Virus record (IMG/VR): IMGVR_UViG_3300045988_155985
From: a virus
Taxonomy: Duplodnaviria > Heunggongvirae > Uroviricota > Caudoviricetes
Direction: 5' to 3' (one strand)
Length of the DNA stretch: 48,901 nt
Part shown: positions 25,803 to 47,889 of the stretch, one piece after another
Layout: each line of letters begins with the position of its first letter
How positions within the stretch are numbered: the first letter of the stretch is position 1
The notes under the pieces: model-generated
What the model saw: only the letters and a program-made list of their open reading frames with translations
The model's database searches: none
What the model was told of the DNA's origin: nothing
Program-made: the position numbers and the translations under genes

Positions 25803-26336
25803 ATGCAGCATTTAAAAAATATTAAGTCAGGAAATCCAAAAACAAAAGAGCAATATCAGCTAACAAAGAATTTTGATGTTATCTGGTTATGGTCCGAAGA
25901 CGGTAAAAACTGGTATGAAGAACAAAAGAACTTTCAGGAAAACACAATAAAGCTAGCTTACACAGCAGAGGGAATTATTGTTGCTATTGATAAGGATGTA
26001 TCGGCAATTAATCCAGAAGGTTTAAGCGTTGTTGAGTTGCCTGATATAACGGCCAATAGACGGGCTGATATTTCGGGTAACTGGATGTTCAAAGATGGCG
26101 CGGTGATAAAGCGAACTTATACCGAGGAGGAACAGAGGCAGCAGGCAGAGAATGAAAAGCAAAGCCTGTTGCAACTTGTCAGGGATAAAACCCAGCTATG
26201 GGACTCACAGCTACGGCTGGGTATCATTTCCGACGAGAATAAACTAAAATTAACCGAGTGGATGCTCTATGCGCAGAAAGTCGAATCTACAGACACCTCC
26301 AGCCTGCCAGTAACGTTTCCCGAACAACCAGAATGA
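25803..26336 (+). CDS. tail fibre assembly protein (expressed orientation)
   Basis: 177 aa; N-terminus [14 protein letters not shown] shared with the minus-strand paralog. Confidence 0.75.
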
Positions 26337-26364
26337 GACAAGGCCCGCTATCGGGCCTTAATTT

Positions 26365-26892
26365 TTATTCAGGCTTTTGTGGCCATTCAGGATTTGCCGT
26401 ATCCACACGGCTGACCAGAACACTGTAGCGTTCCCATGATTCCAGTCGTGCGCGTTCCTCATCCGTCGCCATATTCAGCCTGACAGCGCGCTCCAGTGGC
26501 TGAATAACGCTTTCTGCTTCGGAAAGTAACGCGGCCTTTTGTGATTCGGCCTGTTGTTGCTGTTCGTCAGCCGTATAAATCCGTTTAACCACAGCTCCGT
26601 CCTTAAACATCCACTTACCGGAATCATCGGCCCGACGATTGGTTGTTATATCGGGAACCTCAACGACGCTAAAACCTTCAGGGTTAAGCGTGGATGCATC
26701 TTTGGTGATGGCGACAATAATATTATTTTCATCGTAAACAATCTTTATGGTGTCTGGCTGAAAGTTTTTCACTTCCTCATACCAGTTTTTTCCGTCCTCA
26801 GAGTAAAGCCAGATAACTCCGTGTTTCTTTGTTAACTCATACTGTTCCAGTGTTTTAGCGTTACCCGCTTTTATGTTCTTTAAGTGCATCAT
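26365..26892 (-). CDS. alternative tail fibre assembly protein (silent orientation)
   Basis: 175 aa; paralogous N-terminus [14 protein letters not shown]; convergent to 25803-26336. Confidence 0.75.
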
Positions 26893-26893
26893 A

Positions 26894-27904
26894 TTAAACG
26901 CTCGCTACATTATACCAGGTGCCATTTATATACTTTTGAACGGGTCTGTAATAAACGCCCGCTATATTATCGGCAGAATTGGACCCTGTATCCTGAACAT
27001 TAATACCAGTCAATACATGACCTGACGGGCACTGGAAATTCCATGTTTGCCAGTTGTTCACGCCATAATATTGCTGTGAACCAAGTCGAACATCTTTCAC
27101 ATAACGGGAATCAAAGTTACCGTAATCTGAGGGATTAACACGCCCTGTAATATTTATGGTTTTATTACTTTGAATACTGCCGGAGACAAAGCGCATAACA
27201 TGGACGTTATTAGCATAAACATCCAGATACCCGTCGCCATTTTGTTTAAATCCCGTGTCATTATCACCCAAAACAATCGAGTTACCGCCAAGAGCACTGG
27301 ATGTACCGATGCCCAGTGCACCATTCAATTGACCTCCAGATAATGACAACGCCCCAACATCAGCAGCAGTCGGTTTAATGTGCGAACTGTAAATTACATA
27401 TACAGTTCCATCTGTCAGACCTGTTGGTTTATTCGCTGTATAAGTTGGTGATGTATGAATCGTTACGCTGGCGTTACTGGTATAATCCCACTGAATATTA
27501 ACACCTGTGGCGTAATTACCTATTTCAACATAAACATCATAGGTATCACCTGATGTATTCACCCATGCAAAATTAGTAAATCCAACCGATGTCCGTCGCC
27601 ATAACGCACCAGTAAGACCTTTTGGATTTCCATTTCCCGCACGAAGAACAAGTTCAGATATACCAGCCTGCATAGGGGAGTTAACATTATATCCAGCACC
27701 ACCAATCAGGCTTATGTAAACCACGGAACTGGCTTGTGGCATTGTTACAGTTGCCAGTTTGAACCATCCAGCACCACCACTAAAAGACATGGTTGTTGAA
27801 TTTGTTGTGCCGATATTACGCAGGAATAGTTTTTTATCGGGAATATCTGCGCCGTTCTGGTTTTTCTGTAATGCGCCAGAAGCCTGATTTACCGTTTCCT
27901 GCAA
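26894..27904 (-). CDS. alternative tail fibre C-terminal variable region (promoterless until inversion)
   Basis: Track start is TTG; encodes LQETVNQ which continues the fibre frame across the crossover site; shares [17 protein letters not shown] and C-terminal [11 protein letters not shown] with the plus-strand fibre. Confidence 0.7.
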
Positions 27905-27911
27905 ACCGAGG
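27888..27911. repeat. right inverted repeat / recombination site of the invertible segment
   Basis: TTTACCGTTTCCTGCAAACCGAGG, reverse complement of 24923-24946. Confidence 0.7.
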
Positions 27912-27985
27912 TTTTTGCGAATTGCCTCTGTGTCGTCTGAACGATATTTTTTCCCGCTTTTAGCAACAATCGCGGTTTAGAAAGT

Positions 27986-28540
27986 ATGCAATATGGTTAT
28001 GCGAGGGTGTCAACTTTTGACCAGAATTTGGAATTACAACTGGAGGCGCTCAGGAGTTTAGGATGTGACCGGATTTTTGAAGATAAAATATCCGGTGCTA
28101 AATCAAAACGACCAGGACTTGATAAGCTACTTAAGGTGTTACGGCCGGGCGATACGGTTATTGTCTGGAAGCTGGACCGAATGGGGCGTTCTCTGATTCA
28201 TCTTGTTGATTTACTTAACCATTTTTTATCAAACAACATTGAGTTTATTTCGATTACGGAAGGGATAAAAATTAGCACTTCAATTGGCCGCTTTGCCTAC
28301 ACGATGCTGAGTGCAGTCGCAGAGATGGAGCGGGAAAATATGATTGAAAGAACGCGTGCAGGATTGGCGGTGGCAAGGGCTAACGGCAGGATAGGAGGAC
28401 GCCGCTCAAAGCTGGCACCAGAGCAATGGGAACAGATCGGAAGGCTTATTGCGAATGGTGTTTCACGTAAGCGGATAGCGATTATCTTCGATGTTACCTT
28501 ATCCACGCTTTACCGCAGGTTTCCGGCTGGGAATCATTGA
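27986..28540 (+). CDS. serine-recombinase DNA invertase (Hin/Gin/Cin family)
   Basis: N-terminal GYARVSTFDQ with catalytic Ser, central resolvase motifs, C-terminal HTH; adjacent to the invertible segment. Confidence 0.9.
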   Translation: MQYGYARVSTFDQNLELQLEALRSLGCDRIFEDKISGAKSKRPGLDKLLKVLRPGDTVIVWKLDRMGRSLIHLVDLLNHFLSNNIEFISITEGIKISTSIGRFAYTMLSAVAEMERENMIERTRAGLAVARANGRIGGRRSKLAPEQWEQIGRLIANGVSRKRIAIIFDVTLSTLYRRFPAGNH

Positions 28541-28670
28541 CTGGAGTTAGGCCAGTAGTATGATGCTCGCAAAACGAGATCCAATTTAGATCCTTTTACT
28601 GGTGGATTATCGTTCGATCAGTGAGAGACTTCGTGCATGACCGAAAGTGTTGTGGTAGAGTTCTCTTAAA

Positions 28671-28685
28671 ACCACGTAACGTGGT
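28671..28685. promoter_or_regulatory. 15-bp palindrome ACCACGTAACGTGGT upstream of repA; same half-sites as the cI/cro operators
   Basis: Perfect ACCAC-N5-GTGGT palindrome. Confidence 0.4.
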
Positions 28686-28729
28686 TATGATTGTGGGTGT
28701 CTGGTTGGAAAGTGACCAGATATGGAAAC

Positions 28730-28850
28730 AAAAAGCCCGCAGATAAATCTGCGGGCTTCTTGCGACATCCACGGAAAACCAACAATTAACCATGGGCGCC
28801 TCGACAACTCCCATTATACGTTGGTTTTCCGTGGACGCAAGAGCGAACAT
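28730..28850 (-). ncRNA. candidate CopA-like antisense RNA against the repA leader
   Basis: Minus-strand terminator (hairpin 28735-28756 followed by T-run on the minus strand) and a 15-bp-stem hairpin at 28769-28834 just upstream of the repA ATG. Confidence 0.3.
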
Positions 28851-29699
28851 ATGGATAGACCAATGCCGTCTCTACGTTCAGCTTACGTTTGTAATTTGTC
28901 GCCGGAGTTCCAGCCTCCAAAGCACCATACGCACAAGCTGCCGCTGGTGTTATCTGATGCTTTACAGCGCATTAATGGGCGTGATCTTACGTGTGAGGTT
29001 GCGTTCTACGTTAATCAACCGTCAGAGCGGAAGCGCCGGATAAACGAGCATCGTCGTCGGGCGATTAATGCTGTGATCGCTGCGATTTTGCACCATGTAA
29101 ACATCATTTCTAAGCGGGTTCTGGCTAGTGCTGAGGCGTTGGCTGATTTTTGCGGCCTGTCTACCGTATCCGAAGCTGGGAACAAGTCTATAACGCGCTG
29201 TACAAGGGCGTTGTCGCAACTGAAAGCGTTAGGTTTTATTGATTATGAACGTCGCTGGGATCGGGTGAATAAACAGTATTGGCCAGCGAAAATAGAGATT
29301 CGTGATCAACTGCTGGAAACCGTTGGTATTACTGAACAAGCATGGAGACGTGCGGTTAGCCAGAAACTTAATTACTTCAATGCGAAGAATAGCGAACGGC
29401 TTAAAAAAGCGATAACGGAGGCTGATTATAAGCGTATTGTTATTCAGGAGCAGATGGAGAATGTATGGCGTCAGAGGAAGACGGCCAGAGAGATAAAGGC
29501 AAAACAGAAAGCAGCGGAGAGAGCTGCGCGTCTTGTTCGGGAAAAGGGAGAGGCCGAACTTCGTCATCAAATCACTAGAGAGGTTAGCCAGGAATTTGCT
29601 GATGGCATGTATCCTGGAGCTGACCTTGCATATTTACGATCCCTCGTTGAGCAGCGTTATAACAGGTTAAGAAAGACCTGGAAATCACTCCAACATTAA
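28851..29699 (+). CDS. repA: plasmid replication initiator RepA, IncFII RepA1-like
   Basis: Segment GNKSITRCTRALSQLKALGFIDY matches recalled RepA1 GKLSITRATRALTFLSELGLITY; basic C-terminal half; ATG 28851 preferred over track start 28722 because the leader is structured. Confidence 0.7.
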   Translation: MDRPMPSLRSAYVCNLSPEFQPPKHHTHKLPLVLSDALQRINGRDLTCEVAFYVNQPSERKRRINEHRRRAINAVIAAILHHVNIISKRVLASAEALADFCGLSTVSEAGNKSITRCTRALSQLKALGFIDYERRWDRVNKQYWPAKIEIRDQLLETVGITEQAWRRAVSQKLNYFNAKNSERLKKAITEADYKRIVIQEQMENVWRQRKTAREIKAKQKAAERAARLVREKGEAELRHQITREVSQEFADGMYPGADLAYLRSLVEQRYNRLRKTWKSLQH

Positions 29700-30330
29700 C
29701 CCACCTGAATGATGAATCCGGTTTTACCGGAGGATTATCTACGTCGCAATAAAATATCTGTTCAAAAAACAATCTAAATTAATTTTCTCTAAACCTGAAC
29801 ACAGCGTAAATATCGCCTTTACAGGCATCAGCTAATCAAGTTATCCACAGTTTTGATATGTATATGCAAATGGTTTTTTATAATAGATGCACTAAACAAA
29901 TAAATGCAAAATCACTTTCTTTTATTAAAACTTTCTTTATTTAACTTACGCAGGCTTTGCCTGTGAATATGTTCGCCCTTGCAGCGAGCTAAAGCTCGCG
30001 CCGGTTCGAATCGCTACGCTCAAATATACCTCCTCCGGCACTTGCCGGAGGCATGGAGCAGCCTGATCATCCTTTTCGAAACGGCACGTTTCGAACTATA
30101 CAAAATCAATTTATATAAGGCCGAAACAAGGCCTACGGCCGGGCTTTGCAGGAGGAAGGGGCGAGCCTTATCAATAAACGTCGATAAATACGCACACAGT
30201 AGCCATCAGAACGCGATAAAACGTAAGAAACATCATTTCCTATTAGACATAGAAAACTTGTCTTATACGCAATGTAGTAAATTTCTATTGCCACATAGGA
30301 AAAGATTTCCTACCATCGTAGATATAATAA
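29700..30330. promoter_or_regulatory. candidate vegetative origin region downstream of repA
   Basis: Perfect DnaA box TTATCCACA at 29841-29849; AT-rich stretch; perfect palindromes at 29985-29998, 30032-30051 and 30075-30095. Confidence 0.4.
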
Positions 30331-30342
30331 ATGGAGATGGTT

Positions 30343-30630
30343 ATGGATAAAGATACTGTTTTAAAAATGTTGAATCCGGCTTGTTTAAAAAAAGCGGATG
30401 AATGGGAATCTCCTACATGTGGAGAAGTTCGGGCAGTCATTGGCCTGACCGGAATGAGCGGCTCGCAGTTGGCCAAAAAACTTGGCTTAAAAGATAGTCG
30501 CAATGTTCGCAACTGGCAGATGTTAAAGGAGTCCACATCCAGATCCAGCATTCCGTATGCAGCCTGGGCGCTGCTGTGTTACTTCGCTGGGTTAGGGTTA
30601 ATCTTCATTGATAACAAAACAGATGTTTGA
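30343..30630 (+). CDS. HTH (Xre-like) protein with C-terminal hydrophobic helix
   Basis: Segment MSGSQLAKKLGLKDSRNVRNWQ HTH-like; C-terminal IPYAAWALLCYFAGLGLIF. Confidence 0.4.
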   Translation: MDKDTVLKMLNPACLKKADEWESPTCGEVRAVIGLTGMSGSQLAKKLGLKDSRNVRNWQMLKESTSRSSIPYAAWALLCYFAGLGLIFIDNKTDV

Positions 30631-33919: not shown

Positions 33920-35065
33920 TTATGGTCTGCTTTTCTGTGCCAGCTTATCAGCACATGTTTTTATCAGATCCTGTAGTGTCCTGGCTGGCAGGTTTGCATC
34001 CAGAACGCTGAGTATGCTGTTGTGATCAGCCTGGTCGACTACTTTGCCTGTCGGTGGTAGTAGCTTGAGCTGAGGATTCAGGTTTTCGTCAAAGCTGATA
34101 AGTGCTCTGGCGTTTCTGAGCAGATCAAGAAGTAAGGCTGATATCACATTTTCCTGAGTCATTGCTGGCAGATTTAGCGCCGCTTTAGTTTTCCCTGTTG
34201 CCTTGTCAAACTCCTTGATTAGTTCCTTCCTGTAGTTCGGTTCCGTTAATAGCCGATTATGCTCTGTTGCCGCGCGGATAATCGTTTTTTCCTGGTATAG
34301 TCGTTTAGCCAGATCACGCTCGTACTGTGTTTTTAACACGCTGCTGATAGCGTTAAAGGCTTCAATGTAGGCCAGCTTGATATCTTTCACGCCTGGACCG
34401 TCGATGCTCTCCATGAGCAAGGTAAATCCGTCTTTTGTCATGCGATAGATTGTTATTTCGCGGTCGCTTCCTTCCAGCGGTCGTTGTTCTTTAAAAAAGT
34501 GACGCGCCGCAGCTGTGCGAGGAATGCGTAACGCATCGATGGCCATAACGATGGAATTGTTTGTGGTGCTGAATGCCTGGGCAACATCGGCTGAGGTTGT
34601 GAGTGGCTCGTTATTGCACACCTTAATGTAAAACATCGGTTTGGCGTTGAGCGTATCGACAACCTCACGAGCATTGTTTGGCGAGACGGTTACGGTCGCG
34701 GCCGTTTGCGCGTTCTGGTTGAAATAGCAGTCTTCCAGTTTTTCGAACACATCCCAAGCCTGATCGGTTTCAAGCATTTTGGCGTGACGTGCAGCCCCGC
34801 GTTCTGTCCAGAGGATGAGGGAGCGGACTTTAGGTGAAACTGGATTTTGTGAGTAGTTTAAAGCTACCCGCAATTCTTTAAGGTCATTACCAACAACTTT
34901 GAAAAAGTGTTTCCCTTCAACGAAACGTACTTTGTTCTCATGATGATTCTGGCGAATACGCACCGGCTCAGTGCCGTAAAGCTGTGCCAGTAACTCGGTA
35001 GTAATGACAGGGATTTGGTTATGCAGGATAGGCTGTAGGGTGTTAACGGTCGGAAGCGTTTTCAT
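33920..35065 (-). CDS. antirepressor (Ant-like) with ORF6N/Rha-like domains
   Basis: 381 aa; N-terminal VITTELLAQLYG and central ADVAQAFS segments resemble antirepressor/Rha-family domains. Confidence 0.7.
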   Translation of the reverse strand: MKTLPTVNTLQPILHNQIPVITTELLAQLYGTEPVRIRQNHHENKVRFVEGKHFFKVVGNDLKELRVALNYSQNPVSPKVRSLILWTERGAARHAKMLETDQAWDVFEKLEDCYFNQNAQTAATVTVSPNNAREVVDTLNAKPMFYIKVCNNEPLTTSADVAQAFSTTNNSIVMAIDALRIPRTAAARHFFKEQRPLEGSDREITIYRMTKDGFTLLMESIDGPGVKDIKLAYIEAFNAISSVLKTQYERDLAKRLYQEKTIIRAATEHNRLLTEPNYRKELIKEFDKATGKTKAALNLPAMTQENVISALLLDLLRNARALISFDENLNPQLKLLPPTGKVVDQADHNSILSVLDANLPARTLQDLIKTCADKLAQKSRP

Positions 35066-35253: not shown

Positions 35254-35418
35254 TGTGATGATTCCCTTAAAGGTTAAGGATACTCACCACCGTCAGGTTC
35301 CAATCATTGGGTGGTGAGACGTGCAGGGTTGGAACTACCGGACACAATGACGAACCGGCGAGTCTTACGACTCCCCCGCACGCCCCACCATAATTTGGGT
35401 GTAGCAGTGCTTTACGCA

Positions 35419-35440
35419 TAAAAAAACCGCTAACGCGGTA
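35419..35440 (-). terminator. minus-strand rho-independent terminator
   Basis: On the minus strand: hairpin ACCGCGTTAGCGGT followed by TTTTTTT. Confidence 0.5.
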
Positions 35441-35585
35441 TGCGCCATTGTGTCTACGGGGTTCCAATCCCGACCGTAGATTTTGCTACGGCTCGGAAAG
35501 TGTCCACCAATGGCGCATTCATGTCAATACGGCGGGATTTTAACAGAGACAACCACATAGCGTGGGTTTATTGGTAGGCAGAAAC

Positions 35586-35760: not shown

Positions 35761-35999
35761 AATGAAGTTTTTTAACTTCTTCGGATGTAATTACATGTAA
35801 TAAAAGCATTTGTTATTCCTTCATTATGAAGGCGAGGACGTGTAATATGGCTTGGGGCCTTTTCGCCGATTCGCACCCGGGCACCGACTTTAAGGAAAGG
35901 ATCATCCACTTGCCGTACACGCAAGCACAAGCGGTGTGCTTGCTCTCGCGTCATTTTCGTCGGTGGAGATGCCGTGAAACGGCCTGTAAGGGCCACACA

Positions 36000-36122
36000 A
36001 TGAAAAAATACTACATGTGTATTTTTATCGTTGTTACTGGAGCTTTGTTTACGCCACATGGGGAGGGTTGGAAGATTACTGATAACGCTCTGAATGTGAC
36101 GATAAACATTAGCAGCAAGTAG
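36000..36122 (+). CDS. small hydrophobic peptide, 40 aa
   Basis: MKKYYMCIFIVVTGALF N-terminus; ATG 36000; strong terminator immediately downstream. Confidence 0.3.
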   Translation: MKKYYMCIFIVVTGALFTPHGEGWKITDNALNVTINISSK

Positions 36123-36128
36123 CGATTA

Positions 36129-36150
36129 GGCCCCTTCGGGGGCCTTTTTT
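36129..36150 (+). terminator. rho-independent terminator
   Basis: Hairpin GGCCCC-TTCG-GGGGCC followed by TTTTTT. Confidence 0.6.
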
Positions 36151-37878: not shown

Positions 37879-37893
37879 ACCACAAAATGTGGT
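37879..37893. promoter_or_regulatory. operator palindrome ACCACAAAATGTGGT
   Basis: Perfect ACCAC-N5-GTGGT between the cI-like stop and the next minus-strand gene. Confidence 0.45.
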
Positions 37894-37935: not shown

Positions 37936-38592
37936 TCATAACCAGTTGACAACACTAACTACGCGGCCCAGAACTTTATAACGCTTAAATTCCTCGTTAT
38001 TCAGATGCTTAGTGTTCATTTCAGCATCCCTTTCGGTTGACAGCATAACAGCATTGTCACCCGGTATGACTCTACAGTGCCTCAAAACAACCAGGCCATT
38101 TCTGTCTTCAAGGGCATAGATCCCCTCATGAATCTCTGTATCGTCTGTATTAATCAGGACTTGGGAGCCAGGGGATATTGTTGGTGACATTAACTCATCG
38201 TTGCTCTGGAGAACTGACAGAGACGATGAGTTGATGTTCTTGCTTCGTAGAATCTCCTGTTCTATCGCCAGCACTGGCTTTTCTCCGGCGTGCGATGCTA
38301 TGTCATTTTTTATAGCTACAAGCCCAGGAATAACAGGAGCGTTAGTATTCTGGGGTGGGAACGGGTTATCTGTTAAGCACGCGATATAAGGCGCTGATGC
38401 TTTCAGGGCGTGCGCGATTTTCTTGATGGCAGGTATAGATGGTTGTCTTAATCCGGCCTCATAGTTCTGCAAGGTGCTTAAGCCTATTCCAGTGACTTGC
38501 TGGAGATCTCCGGCAGTCATGCCGGATTGTTTCCGTAGAGTCTGAATGCGCAGACCTATTTCTTTCTTGATGTTCTCGTCGTTGCTTTTCAT
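37936..38592 (-). CDS. prophage repressor, cI/LexA-like (N-terminal HTH, C-terminal S24 peptidase-like)
   Basis: HTH GMTAGDLQQVTGIGLSTLQNYE; C-terminal segment with Ser and Lys candidates; divergent from cro-like gene. Confidence 0.8.
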   Translation of the reverse strand: MKSNDENIKKEIGLRIQTLRKQSGMTAGDLQQVTGIGLSTLQNYEAGLRQPSIPAIKKIAHALKASAPYIACLTDNPFPPQNTNAPVIPGLVAIKNDIASHAGEKPVLAIEQEILRSKNINSSSLSVLQSNDELMSPTISPGSQVLINTDDTEIHEGIYALEDRNGLVVLRHCRVIPGDNAVMLSTERDAEMNTKHLNNEEFKRYKVLGRVVSVVNWL

Positions 38593-38629
38593 GTCTCATC
38601 AATCGTGAATGGTGGGTTATTTATACATT

Positions 38630-38747
38630 ACCACATTTAGTGGTTTTCACATGGTAAGACGAGAGGTGGACCACAAATAGAAGGTTATTTTTTGTTTCGC
38701 CCATTGAAAAACTCACGATATGTGGTTTTAATACCACATATCGTGGT
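38630..38747. promoter_or_regulatory. operator cluster in the cI-cro intergenic region
   Basis: ACCACATTTAGTGGT at 38630-38644, imperfect CTCACGATATGTGGT at 38712-38726, ACCACATATCGTGGT at 38733-38747, half-site at 38670. Confidence 0.5.
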
Positions 38748-38765
38748 TTAACTGGAGTTCGTTAA

Positions 38766-47813: not shown

Positions 47814-47889
47814 GGCCCCTTAGCTCAGTGGTTAGAGCAGGCGACTCATAATCGCACGGTCATCGGTTCAAATCCGGTAGGGGCCACCA
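47814..47889 (+). tRNA. tRNA with CAU anticodon (Met or lysidine-dependent Ile2; resembles ileX-type)
   Basis: Perfect 7-bp acceptor stem GGCCCCT/AGGGGCC; D-arm GCTC/GAGC; anticodon loop CTCATAA; T-arm with TTCAAAT; encoded 3' CCA. Confidence 0.85.

Follow-up and report, generated by a model that had tools for sequence, protein, structure and literature searches.

Phage-plasmids are gaining recognition as carriers of resistance genes, and the ways in which they set their copy number and exclude one another are known for only a few models such as P1 and N15. The DNA considered here is a 48,901-nt stretch of a tailed virus of the Caudoviricetes (IMG/VR record IMGVR_UViG_3300045988_155985), referred to below as the window and numbered from its first letter, and the system in question is the repA replicon at 28.5-30.1 kb within it. 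The explanation that is favoured on balance, when taken as a whole, is that a temperate myovirus kept as a plasmid has in this segment its sole theta replicon of plasmid type. The replicon is real; its antisense control, an undescribed variant, and its link to the prophage repressor are probable. An initial annotation of the sequence had seen an IncFII-type replicon with CopA/CopT-type antisense control inside a tailed phage, a reading that is right in kind and wrong in detail.

Among the described systems the nearest are the IncFII replicons of R1 and R100/NR1, with the order copB-copA/copT-tap-repA-CIS-oriR, and those of the I-complex and IncL-M (ColIb-P9 of IncI-alpha, pMU720 of IncB, IncK, IncZ and pMU604). 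In IncFII the repA gene has the promoters PcopB and PrepA, repression is the role of CopB, and inhibition by the antisense RNA is a steric block of the ribosome-binding site (RBS) of a leader peptide. In the I-complex the antisense RNA is a single stem-loop transcribed from outside the target loop. Another logic is found in the Gram-positive plasmids pT181 and pIP501/pAMbeta1 (attenuation) and pSK41 (RBS sequestration), where the antisense RNA binds an upstream 'pre-emptor' and thereby frees a downstream inhibitory segment. Finally, phage P1 combines a plasmid replicon, oriR with RepA, with a separate C1-controlled lytic replicon, oriL with RepL. What does the window share with these systems, and where does it depart from them?

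The initiator and its origin

The comparison draws on 30 loci that have either the conserved loop core of the leader or a RepA relative at 60-85% identity; single loci are cited by number (L003 and so on) where they have to be told apart. With IncFII the window shares the order of its parts: a counter-transcript leader, repA, a post-stop hairpin, an A-rich spacer in which a 13-mer is identical, a DnaA box and an AT-rich origin. The features from repA onwards are the following.

28863-29699, plus strand: repA, replication initiator of 278 residues (PF02387, NF040977; start from homologue starts and frame-breaking indels upstream)
29717-29731, plus strand: small hairpin TCCGG-TTTTA-CCGGA just past the repA stop, common to IncFII and other relatives
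29763-29775, plus strand: 13-mer CAAAAAACAATCT, identical in the repA-oriR spacer of the IncFII locus L035 (about 1498-1510) and present also in L032
29841-29849, plus strand: DnaA box TTATCCACA at the left edge of the conserved origin block, kept in L003 and L032, with one mismatch in L006, and present also in L004, L005 and L035
29850-29945, unstranded: highly conserved AT-rich region with ATGCA(A/C) repeats at 29864, 29887 and 29904; candidate region of RepA binding and unwinding
29950-30095, unstranded: four hairpins (29951-29963, 29984-29999, 30032-30051 and 30075-30095) bordered by the invariant sequences CCGCCCTTGCAGCG...CGCGCCGGTTCG; probably the structured portion of the origin, from folds and conservation

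RepA scores above the curated cut-offs of both IncFII/IncL-M superfamily models over their full length, namely PF02387 IncFII_repA (E = 8e-44, 150.5 bits against a cut-off of 22.9, profile positions 2-272 of 275) and NF040977 RepA_IncFII_LM (232.2 bits against 70, positions 1-266 of 266), the latter a model that explicitly covers IncFII and L/M. The RepA1 signature named in the initial annotation holds at this superfamily level and fails at the level of IncFII proper: TIGR03474 incFII_RepA gives 79.3 bits against a cut-off of 446.9, and PRK13750 gives 82.3 against 478, whereas the IncFII control L035 reaches 581 and 618, respectively. BLASTP finds about 40% identity to true IncFII RepA over 97 residues, and in a tblastn search of plasmids the IncFII members reach just 29-45% query coverage. 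Judged by these profiles and alignments, RepA is a member of the IncFII/IncL-M initiator superfamily and a distant cousin of classic IncFII, not IncFII sensu stricto. There is likewise no copB (repA2) upstream of repA, where the gap to the invertase gene spans only about 320 nt and its small open reading frames (ORFs; 41 and 32 residues) are poorly conserved, with indels, in L003 and L006; the control L035 has both copB and tap annotated.

Database records (L001, L002 and L007) begin repA at 28722, giving 325 residues (in PGAP annotation as well as in the Yersinia phage record), or at 28851, giving 282. Homologues of RepA at 81-85% and at about 60% identity have 277 residues and start at the equivalent of ATG 28863, and in near-identical elements indels of 6, 8, 9 and 11 nt upstream of 28863 disrupt every reading frame. 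The start at 28722 is therefore an over-extension that runs through the antisense control region, and that at 28851, a possible start that is in frame in the window clade only, is not kept in relatives.

In the DNA that separates repA from the following gene, strong conservation among the relatives at 81-85% identity is confined to 29841-30097, the flanks being far less conserved. The perfect DnaA box and the three perfect palindromes that had been placed at 29985-30095 are all present, the palindromes (29984-29999, 30032-30051 and 30075-30095) lying within this block together with the fourth hairpin, 29951-29963. The box is the sole perfect copy in the 48.9-kb window, a number that is not significant by itself (0.46 expected; 40 of 100 shuffles have at least one); it is informative because its position is conserved among relatives and matches the canonical IncFII replicon, not because it is rare. 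It stands 142 bp past the repA stop, compared with about 177 bp in the IncFII locus L035, and by sequence the arrangement is that of oriR in IncFII, with the box at the repA-proximal edge and AT-rich DNA beyond it. A plasmid-type replicon, with a RepA of the IncFII Pfam family and a downstream origin that includes a DnaA box, is thus present in the phage-plasmid, as had been proposed.

The same origin block is common to the window and to the I-complex-type relatives. L005 and L036 have the same three ATGCA repeats, and relatives with as little as 37% RepA identity still have the DnaA box, the repeats and the sequences CCGCCCTTGCAGCG...CGCGCCGGTTCG that flank the first palindrome. That palindrome, GCGAGC-TAAA-GCTCGC, is fully paired (100%) in 7 lineages, with three of its six pairs changing on both sides; the other two read CCTCCGGC-ACTT-GCCGGAGG (30032-30051) and TTCGAAACG-GCA-CGTTTCGAA (30075-30095). 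The hairpins also fold as single-stranded DNA, with z of -4.0 for the plus and -4.9 for the minus strand. RepA would act on this origin about 140 bp past its own stop codon, through the DnaA box, the ATGCA repeats in AT-rich DNA and the hairpins, which may be priming or loading signals exposed on unwinding; a G4-type, primase-dependent site of single-strand initiation was considered for 29951-30095. An 18-nt direct repeat (28594-28611/29722-29739) is treated as chance, as in the L003 alignments it seemed on inspection not to be conserved. A long-range inverted repeat of 27 nt, 78% complementary, is also seen between the repA start (28837-28863) and the left edge of the origin hairpins (29956-29982).

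The repA leader and its probable counter-transcript

The leader was compared in 15 distinct sequences of the 81-100% clade and in 4 loci of the clade with 60% RepA identity. A scan with the loop core found 22 loci in viral and metagenome sequences and no match in one-genome-per-species contigs. The features on which the argument turns are these.

28759-28841, plus strand: target hairpin of the leader mRNA of repA (stem of 16 bp lengthened by 6 bp at its base, loop of 36 nt), from the inverted repeat, folds and covariation
28729-28762, minus strand: putative intrinsic terminator of the antisense RNA (stem-loop II), inverted repeat 28729-28744/28747-28762, followed by the minus-strand run TTTTTGTTT
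28813-28840, minus strand: putative antisense promoter, -35 TTGCGT (28840-28835), 16-nt spacer, -10 TATAAT (28818-28813), conserved
28726-28806, minus strand: predicted antisense RNA, about 80 nt long, in which the 5' tail UUGUCGAGG leads into stem-loop I, bearing the recognition loop, and then into the terminator, stem-loop II; from fold and covariation, its ends from promoter and terminator
28784-28789, unstranded: hypervariable segment, AATTAA in the window; candidate determinant of specificity or incompatibility, with at least 10 alleles
28819-28865, plus strand: predicted alternative 'OFF' helix, right arm 28819-28833 with 28850-28865, over ATG 28851 and the repA ATG 28863, from a constrained fold

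Very probably a counter-transcript is encoded in the repA leader, with its end at the minus-strand terminator: at the level of sequence, a promoter and an intrinsic terminator opposite the initiator leader bound a short structured RNA. Both structures that had been reported here are present. The hairpin, given earlier as 28769-28834 with a stem of 15 bp, has a perfect 16-bp inverted repeat (28768-28783/28820-28835) with arms 36 nt apart and a 6-bp extension at its base (CTTGCG, 28759-28764; CGCAAG, 28836-28841). The terminator at 28735-28756 has a GC-rich stem (GCCCGCAGA, 28735-28743; TCTGCGGGC, 28748-28756) that continues on the minus strand into TTTTTGTTT, and terminator-containing Rfam models align to this stem. 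On the minus strand 28722-28850 folds at -69.5 kcal/mol (z = -9.3), with none of 200 shuffles equally stable; the sense leader folds with z = -7.8.

Fundamental to the size of the counter-transcript is the place of its promoter. The -10 TATAAT lies within the hairpin loop and the spacer is the right arm of the hairpin itself; both hexamers are invariant in 15 of 15 leader variants, and in the 60% clade TTGCAT-18-TATAAT stands at the equivalent place despite unrelated stem sequences. As this is the sole conserved minus-strand promoter, the antisense RNA probably takes in one arm only and, with a start about 7 nt past the -10 and an end at the terminator, measures about 80 nt; the hairpin belongs to the target mRNA and is no part of an antisense RNA of roughly 100 nt such as the initial annotation had expected. 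Being complementary to the left arm and not to the right, the antisense RNA shares sequence with the right arm, which is identical to part of it, and the left arm is its target. The predicted RNA folds alike in each of the 11 variants examined, as a 5' tail followed by stem-loops I and II, and its RNAalifold consensus consists of two stem-loops with 25 pairs, 6 of which carry compensatory changes. Transcribed from a constitutive TTGCGT-16-TATAAT, such an RNA would set the copy number. A predicted antisense RNA with two stem-loops (80-90 nt) is similar in size to that of IncFII, and the position of its promoter inside the target hairpin is a difference from IncFII.

In a canonical CopA/CopT system, by comparison, a counter-transcript of at least 100 nt would start to the right of the hairpin, in the 5' end of repA, comprise the whole hairpin and the terminator, kiss the mRNA hairpin and block a coupled leader peptide. 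The whole minus-strand segment does fold very stably as hairpin plus terminator, and it is this RepA family that employs CopA or RNAI. An ORF from ATG 28792 starts in the loop, a short ORF of 13 codons overlaps the repA start in L003 and L032 and stops 25 nt beyond it, and in L031 and L005 the stop codon of a leader peptide overlaps the repA start. Such a system is nevertheless unlikely here: no conserved promoter-like sequence lies to the right of the hairpin, a region that varies between clades and has indels, and the sole minus-strand match of the promoter scan is about 400 nt away, within repA. An Rfam search of 28400-30500 at E <= 10 returned neither CopA (RF00042) nor any other known antisense or leader family, only terminator-driven noise (Thr_leader, CsrC), and CopA has no match at gathering score in the whole window, compared with 106.3 bits in the IncFII control L035. 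No tap- or repY-like leader peptide ends at the window repA start, frame 2 having no start codon and the ATG 28792 ORF running for 83 codons. In addition, a perfect unbulged helix of 16-20 bp is unusual in functional antisense RNA, which weighs against the whole hairpin being one. What stands of the CopA/CopT-type architecture is the very probable counter-transcript; the CopA match, copB and tap are absent.

The I-complex leader offers a second point of reference. PK-repBA (RF01089) is matched in the relatives L005 (49.3 bits; a conjugative plasmid with 63% RepA identity) and L036 (56.7 bits; 37% identity) and has no match in the window at E <= 10. The leader of L005 has a counter-promoter TTGAAA-16-TATAAT, one long stem-loop terminator and a leader peptide of 15 residues whose stop overlaps the repA start. 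The window differs from the I-complex in having neither such a leader peptide nor an RBS-adjacent CGCC for the loop GGCG, and its antisense RNA is predicted to have two stem-loops and to arise from inside the target loop rather than as a single stem-loop from outside it. An I-complex-style pseudoknot between loop GGCG and a CGCC near the RBS was rejected, the sole CGCC being 37 nt downstream of the ATG and not seen in L003, and GGAGUU at 28903-28908 was likewise discarded as a partner of the invariant loop core CCUCGACAACUCC, as it is not seen in L003.

Are the two structures RNA, and are they the signals of an antisense RNA? On the sense strand, 99.1% of the cells in the alignment of terminator stem and 16-bp hairpin are paired, with three double changes of which two fall in the target hairpin stem. 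The terminator has a compensatory change from A-U to G-C in L003, L016 and L032, with yet another kind of pair in the 60% clade, and stem-loop I of the antisense RNA has a compensatory change of its own in L003 (CCAUGG/CCGUGG to CCAUAG/CUGUGG). Few independent lineages (L003, L016/L032 and L006) underlie the compensatory changes of the window clade, and the covariation is therefore supportive and not conclusive. The stronger argument is that in the 60% clade the stem sequences of the target hairpin are wholly different and the structure is retained, the stems there being bipartite, with an internal loop and a compensatory deletion of 1 nt.

This bears on the idea that the 16-bp inverted repeat works at the level of DNA, bound by RepA or another protein in autoregulation or handcuffing, or forming a cruciform. 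The arms are long and perfect, symmetric changes in both arms would be expected of a palindrome bound by a dimer as well, and the partial inverted repeat 28837-28863/29956-29982 reaches the edge of the origin. A spacer of 36 bp that holds a promoter would be atypical of an operator, however, the arms have no motif in common with the ATGCA repeats of the origin, the bipartite stems with internal loop and compensatory deletion in the 60% clade are RNA-like, and the stem accepts G-U-type substitutions; a DNA-level element is accordingly given very little probability.

The two hairpins, 28729-28762 and the 16-bp one, could also act purely in cis in the sense transcript, as a leaky terminator or attenuator and a translational operator, with no antisense RNA and an incidental TATAAT in the loop. 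The plus-strand run TTCTT (TTTTT in L018) after the terminator hairpin places that hairpin in the path of transcripts from the two repA promoters P1 and P2 described below, the sense leader is very stable, as noted, and covariation in the 16-bp stem speaks for a sense hairpin and not for an antisense RNA. Against this, the U-run is far better on the minus strand, TATAAT and a TTG-type -35 are kept in two clades without common stem sequence, stem-loop I has its own compensatory change, a hypervariable loop is hard to account for in a purely cis-acting structure, and related replicons are known to be antisense-controlled. A cis-only leader is judged improbable.

The antisense reading has its own weak points. 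The -35 matches just 3 of 6 consensus positions, for which reason the consensus scan did not report the promoter; the 5' end of the RNA is derived from the promoter sequence; the terminator hairpin is also part of the sense transcript and could attenuate it; the counts of compensatory changes overstate the number of events; and the ATG 28792 ORF begins within the antisense target, which makes tap-like coupling conceivable. To these may be added that ATG 28863 has no clear Shine-Dalgarno (SD) sequence, an SD-like AAGAG being itself paired in the free-mRNA fold.

If an antisense RNA acts on the left arm, variation in its loop becomes of interest. The hypervariable segment (6-11 nt) has at least 10 length or sequence alleles among the 15 distinct sequences, with AACTAA, AACAAT, AACAACAAT, AACAATAT, AAACATAT, AAAACAAT and others in place of AATTAA and with indel lengths that are no multiples of three, and its flanks are about 99% identical; the remaining 385 nt or so have 17 polymorphic sites in the window clade, mainly singletons. 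The segment lies at once in the loop of antisense stem-loop I and in that of the target hairpin, and in the distant L003 and L006 the same region forms a longer stem with a loop of 5-6 nt. In I-complex/IncL-M-type replicons incompatibility is expected to be determined by nucleotides in the loop of the antisense RNA (PMC10724649), and hypervariability is the pattern expected of a recognition loop that sets incompatibility. The U-rich loop of stem-loop I would pair with the A/C-rich hypervariable loop of the target, and pairing would then extend across the left arm of the leader hairpin. Should the loop set specificity in this way, related phage-plasmids can escape each other's copy control, near-identical ones could coexist or displace one another accordingly, and the antisense RNA with its loop would serve as a replicon-typing and incompatibility marker for the family. 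In L008 and L017, two independent contigs, a 5-nt duplication (GGAAA) at the equivalent of 28774-28778 in the left arm is seen, an allele in which the target stem gains a bulge and the antisense loop is enlarged.

How might such pairing inhibit RepA synthesis? In the leader folded from promoter P1 to +70, the repA AUG is unpaired with a probability of about 0.95; when 28727-28806 is masked the right arm pairs with 28850-28865 and that value drops to 0.01-0.05. For L003, L006 and L032 the same OFF topology is predicted, a two-part helix around a small CGC-AAGR-GCG hairpin, with different partner sequences; the analogous helix of L004 and L030 would mask the SD sequence of a leader ORF coupled to repA. 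One right-arm position that reads U in the window reads A in L003 and L032, and its partners in the left arm and in the start region both change with it. Judged by folding only, antisense pairing would free the right arm of the hairpin, and the freed arm would re-pair with the repA translation start and shut off RepA synthesis, so that the start codon would be sequestered on an antisense trigger. The OFF helix, with z of only -1.5 to -2.0, exceeds shuffles just modestly in stability, and the analogous helix in L031 is weak, both of which count against the switch. The logic is that of the Gram-positive refolding systems, which have unrelated initiator families and unrelated hosts; here the inhibitory helix would form over a start codon, at the level of translation, and not as a terminator as in Gram-positive attenuation, and it also differs from the steric block of IncFII. 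If true, this would be a compact case of antisense-triggered refolding in an enterobacterial replicon of IncFII/L-M type, and antisense control would account for copy-up mutations upstream of repA.

The leader ORFs of the relatives are an observation in their own right. Apart from L005 (GTGA), the stop codon overlaps the repA start in L031 (33 residues, ATGA) and in L004 and L030 (162 residues, ATGA). In the 60% clade an ORF of 158-162 residues lies between control region and repA (L004:2516-3004, L030:2516-3004 and L034:112-588); that of L004, whose TGA overlaps the repA ATG, is a diverged copy of the N-terminal half of RepA at 29% identity, and in L031 (2903-3004) the ORF has shrunk to its 33 residues with the same N-terminus as the longer ones. 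By sequence, the 'leader peptide' of this clade appears to derive from a duplicated repA.

Transcription of repA and the phage repressor

The elements upstream of the leader hairpin, and those in the immunity region with which they are compared, are as follows.

28537-28564, plus strand: P1, promoter-like TTGACT-16-TATGAT right after the invertase stop, 10 of 12 matches in the scan; candidate upstream repA promoter
28577-28593, unstranded: two AGATCC repeats (Dam GATC sites) 11 bp apart, just 3' of P1, with a GATCC pair of the same spacing in L003, L006 and L004
28653-28661, plus strand: P2, candidate second repA promoter with an extended -10, TGgTAGAGT, and a predicted start at about 28668, from sequence
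28670-28686, unstranded: perfect operator-like palindrome AACCACGTAACGTGGTT, matching the operators of the CI-like repressor in a motif scan
37936-38592, minus strand: CI-like repressor gene of 218 residues (HTH_3 and weak Peptidase_S24 profile matches); candidate binder of 28670-28686
38629-38748, unstranded: three operator palindromes (38629-38645, 38711-38727 and 38732-38748) between the CI-like gene and a divergent gene of 164 residues, from a motif scan

It seems probable from these sequences that repA is transcribed from two promoters, of which P2 is the inner one, an arrangement that is reminiscent of PcopB and PrepA in IncFII. Promoter P1 is kept as TTGACT-16-TATCAT in L003, L006 and L032 and as TTGACG-17-TAGAAT in the 60% clade, and TGnTAGAGT of P2 is conserved in every clade, the 60% clade included. 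The AGATCC repeats beside P1 are also kept in all clades, with three GATC sites in the 60% clade, and could be a methylation- or SeqA-sensitive or protein-binding element.

The operator-like site in the leader recurs in the immunity region. ACCAC-N5-GTGGT is present without mismatch four times in the window, at 28670-28686, at 37879 and twice in the intergenic immunity region, a stretch of 173 bp between the CI-like gene and the divergent gene; with at most one mismatch there are 8 sites where 0.8 are expected, a number reached by none of 100 shuffles. In L003, L006 and L032 the half-sites of the leader operator are conserved and the spacer is variable. In a Citrobacter freundii relative, L037, the repressor is just 27% identical to the CI-like protein of the window and the operators are different, and there the half-site TTGTAGT has 6 copies in 20.8 kb, five in the immunity region and one in the repA leader. 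The leader site thus co-varies with the immunity operators in a second clade. On the other side, the assignment rests on motif sharing in two clades, and the binder could be the CI-like protein or the 164-residue one. The perfect ACCAC-N5-GTGGT at 37879-37893, between the CI-like gene and the operon of a 124-residue gene and ParA, suggests that partition may be under the same regulator as repA.

P2 would have the operator of the CI-like repressor at about +3, which would tie replication to the lysogeny switch, and the motif match suggests repression of the inner repA promoter by a phage regulator, which would act there as CopB does in IncFII. If true, the operator in the repA leader would be a direct link between the lysis-lysogeny decision and plasmid replication. 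In the lysogen, the CI-like repressor would sit on its operator and RepA would be made in a trickle that the antisense RNA can titrate, giving a plasmid mode; on induction the repressor would be lost, P2 would fire, RepA would exceed the antisense RNA and the same origin would drive lytic amplification. No second initiator is annotated in a full-length relative, where repA is the single replication gene, and the same replicon may therefore be derepressed for lytic growth. That one replicon serves both the plasmid and the lytic mode, with a fast-evolving recognition loop of (CAA)n type acting as the specificity of replication immunity, is put forward tentatively and as a possibility only. In contrast to phage P1, the window has one evident replicon, and this carries the repressor operator itself.

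On the far side of the origin, at 30288-30316, there is a conserved promoter-like TTGCCA-17-TACCAT, the spacer of which holds an inverted repeat, AGGAAA-N3-TTTCCT. Downstream of it is a conserved gene of 95 residues (PHROG 8351, with a weak repressor-like match) that always follows the origin.

The phage-plasmid and its neighbouring genes

The element is a phage-plasmid of a known family that is already in the databases. Region 28541-30330 is 98.7-98.9% identical to the Yersinia pestis phages vB_YpM_39, vB_YpM_41 and vB_YpM_44, and about 60 non-mobilizable plasmids of 47-52 kb in E. coli, Salmonella and Klebsiella are 95-99.4% identical over the replicon region. In E. coli 71 of 5426 complete genomes (about 1.3%) carry the element, in 82 places of which every one is plasmid-borne, and the reference strain ATCC 25922 is among them; Yersinia pestis, too, is infected by the family. 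A literature search found no published account of the replicon, and none of the papers found names vB_YpM_39, vB_YpM_41, vB_YpM_44 or pECO-b75. The PLSDB entries seen for the family (MOB-suite) have a replicon without type, and PHROGs places the window RepA under 'unknown function'.

A full-length relative has annotated virion genes for terminase, portal, a ClpP-like protease, major capsid, sheath, tube, tape measure and a P2/Mu-like baseplate, together with an invertible tail-fibre segment and its invertase, ParA, a RelE/ParE-type toxin with a helix-turn-helix (HTH) antitoxin, and Rha. The proteins of the window confirm the lambda-like head genes and the contractile P2/Mu-like tail noted earlier. 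Of the plasmid maintenance backbone that had been proposed, ParA, a HigB-like (Gp49) toxin and an HTH antitoxin are present; ParG is not borne out, the ORF of 84 residues after parA having no Pfam match and only a PHROG of unknown function.

As a temperate tailed phage that lives as a low-copy plasmid with partition and toxin-antitoxin genes, the element resembles phages P1 and N15 and SSU5/pHCM2, from which it differs in virion module, size (about 49 kb) and replicon type. Membership of the pSLy3 phage-plasmid group was rejected, as the pSLy3 elements are SSU5-like and larger than 100 kb.

The likeness to phage P1 extends to a match to the P1-type C4 antisense immunity RNA. At the Rfam gathering score the window matches C4 (P1/P7-type immunity; 35307-35395, minus strand, 77.8 bits), isrK (35420-35492, minus strand, 67.7 bits) and ryfA (35853-36150, plus strand, 138 bits), and these adjoin an ORF6N/Rha antirepressor-like gene (33920-35065, minus strand). 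From these matches the region looks like a second, P1-like immunity layer.

Upstream of the replicon is an invertible tail-fibre module (25803-28540), in which a Hin/Gin-type invertase (27986-28540) adjoins the tail-fibre genes. The tail-fibre assembly genes are opposed (25803-26336, plus strand; 26365-26892, minus strand), and an inverted fibre C-terminus lies at 26894-27904 on the minus strand.

A preprint of August 2026 on phage-plasmid-mediated heteroresistance (bioRxiv 10.64898/2026.08.19.745698) cites CP032086, the ATCC 25922 copy of the element. By term counts it discusses copy number and has the phrase 'upstream of repA' three times and 'mutations in repA' four times, seems to use neither 'antisense' nor 'hairpin', and may hold copy-up mutations relevant to the replicon. 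The phage-plasmid also carries a tRNA-Met (CAT) gene at 47814-47889.

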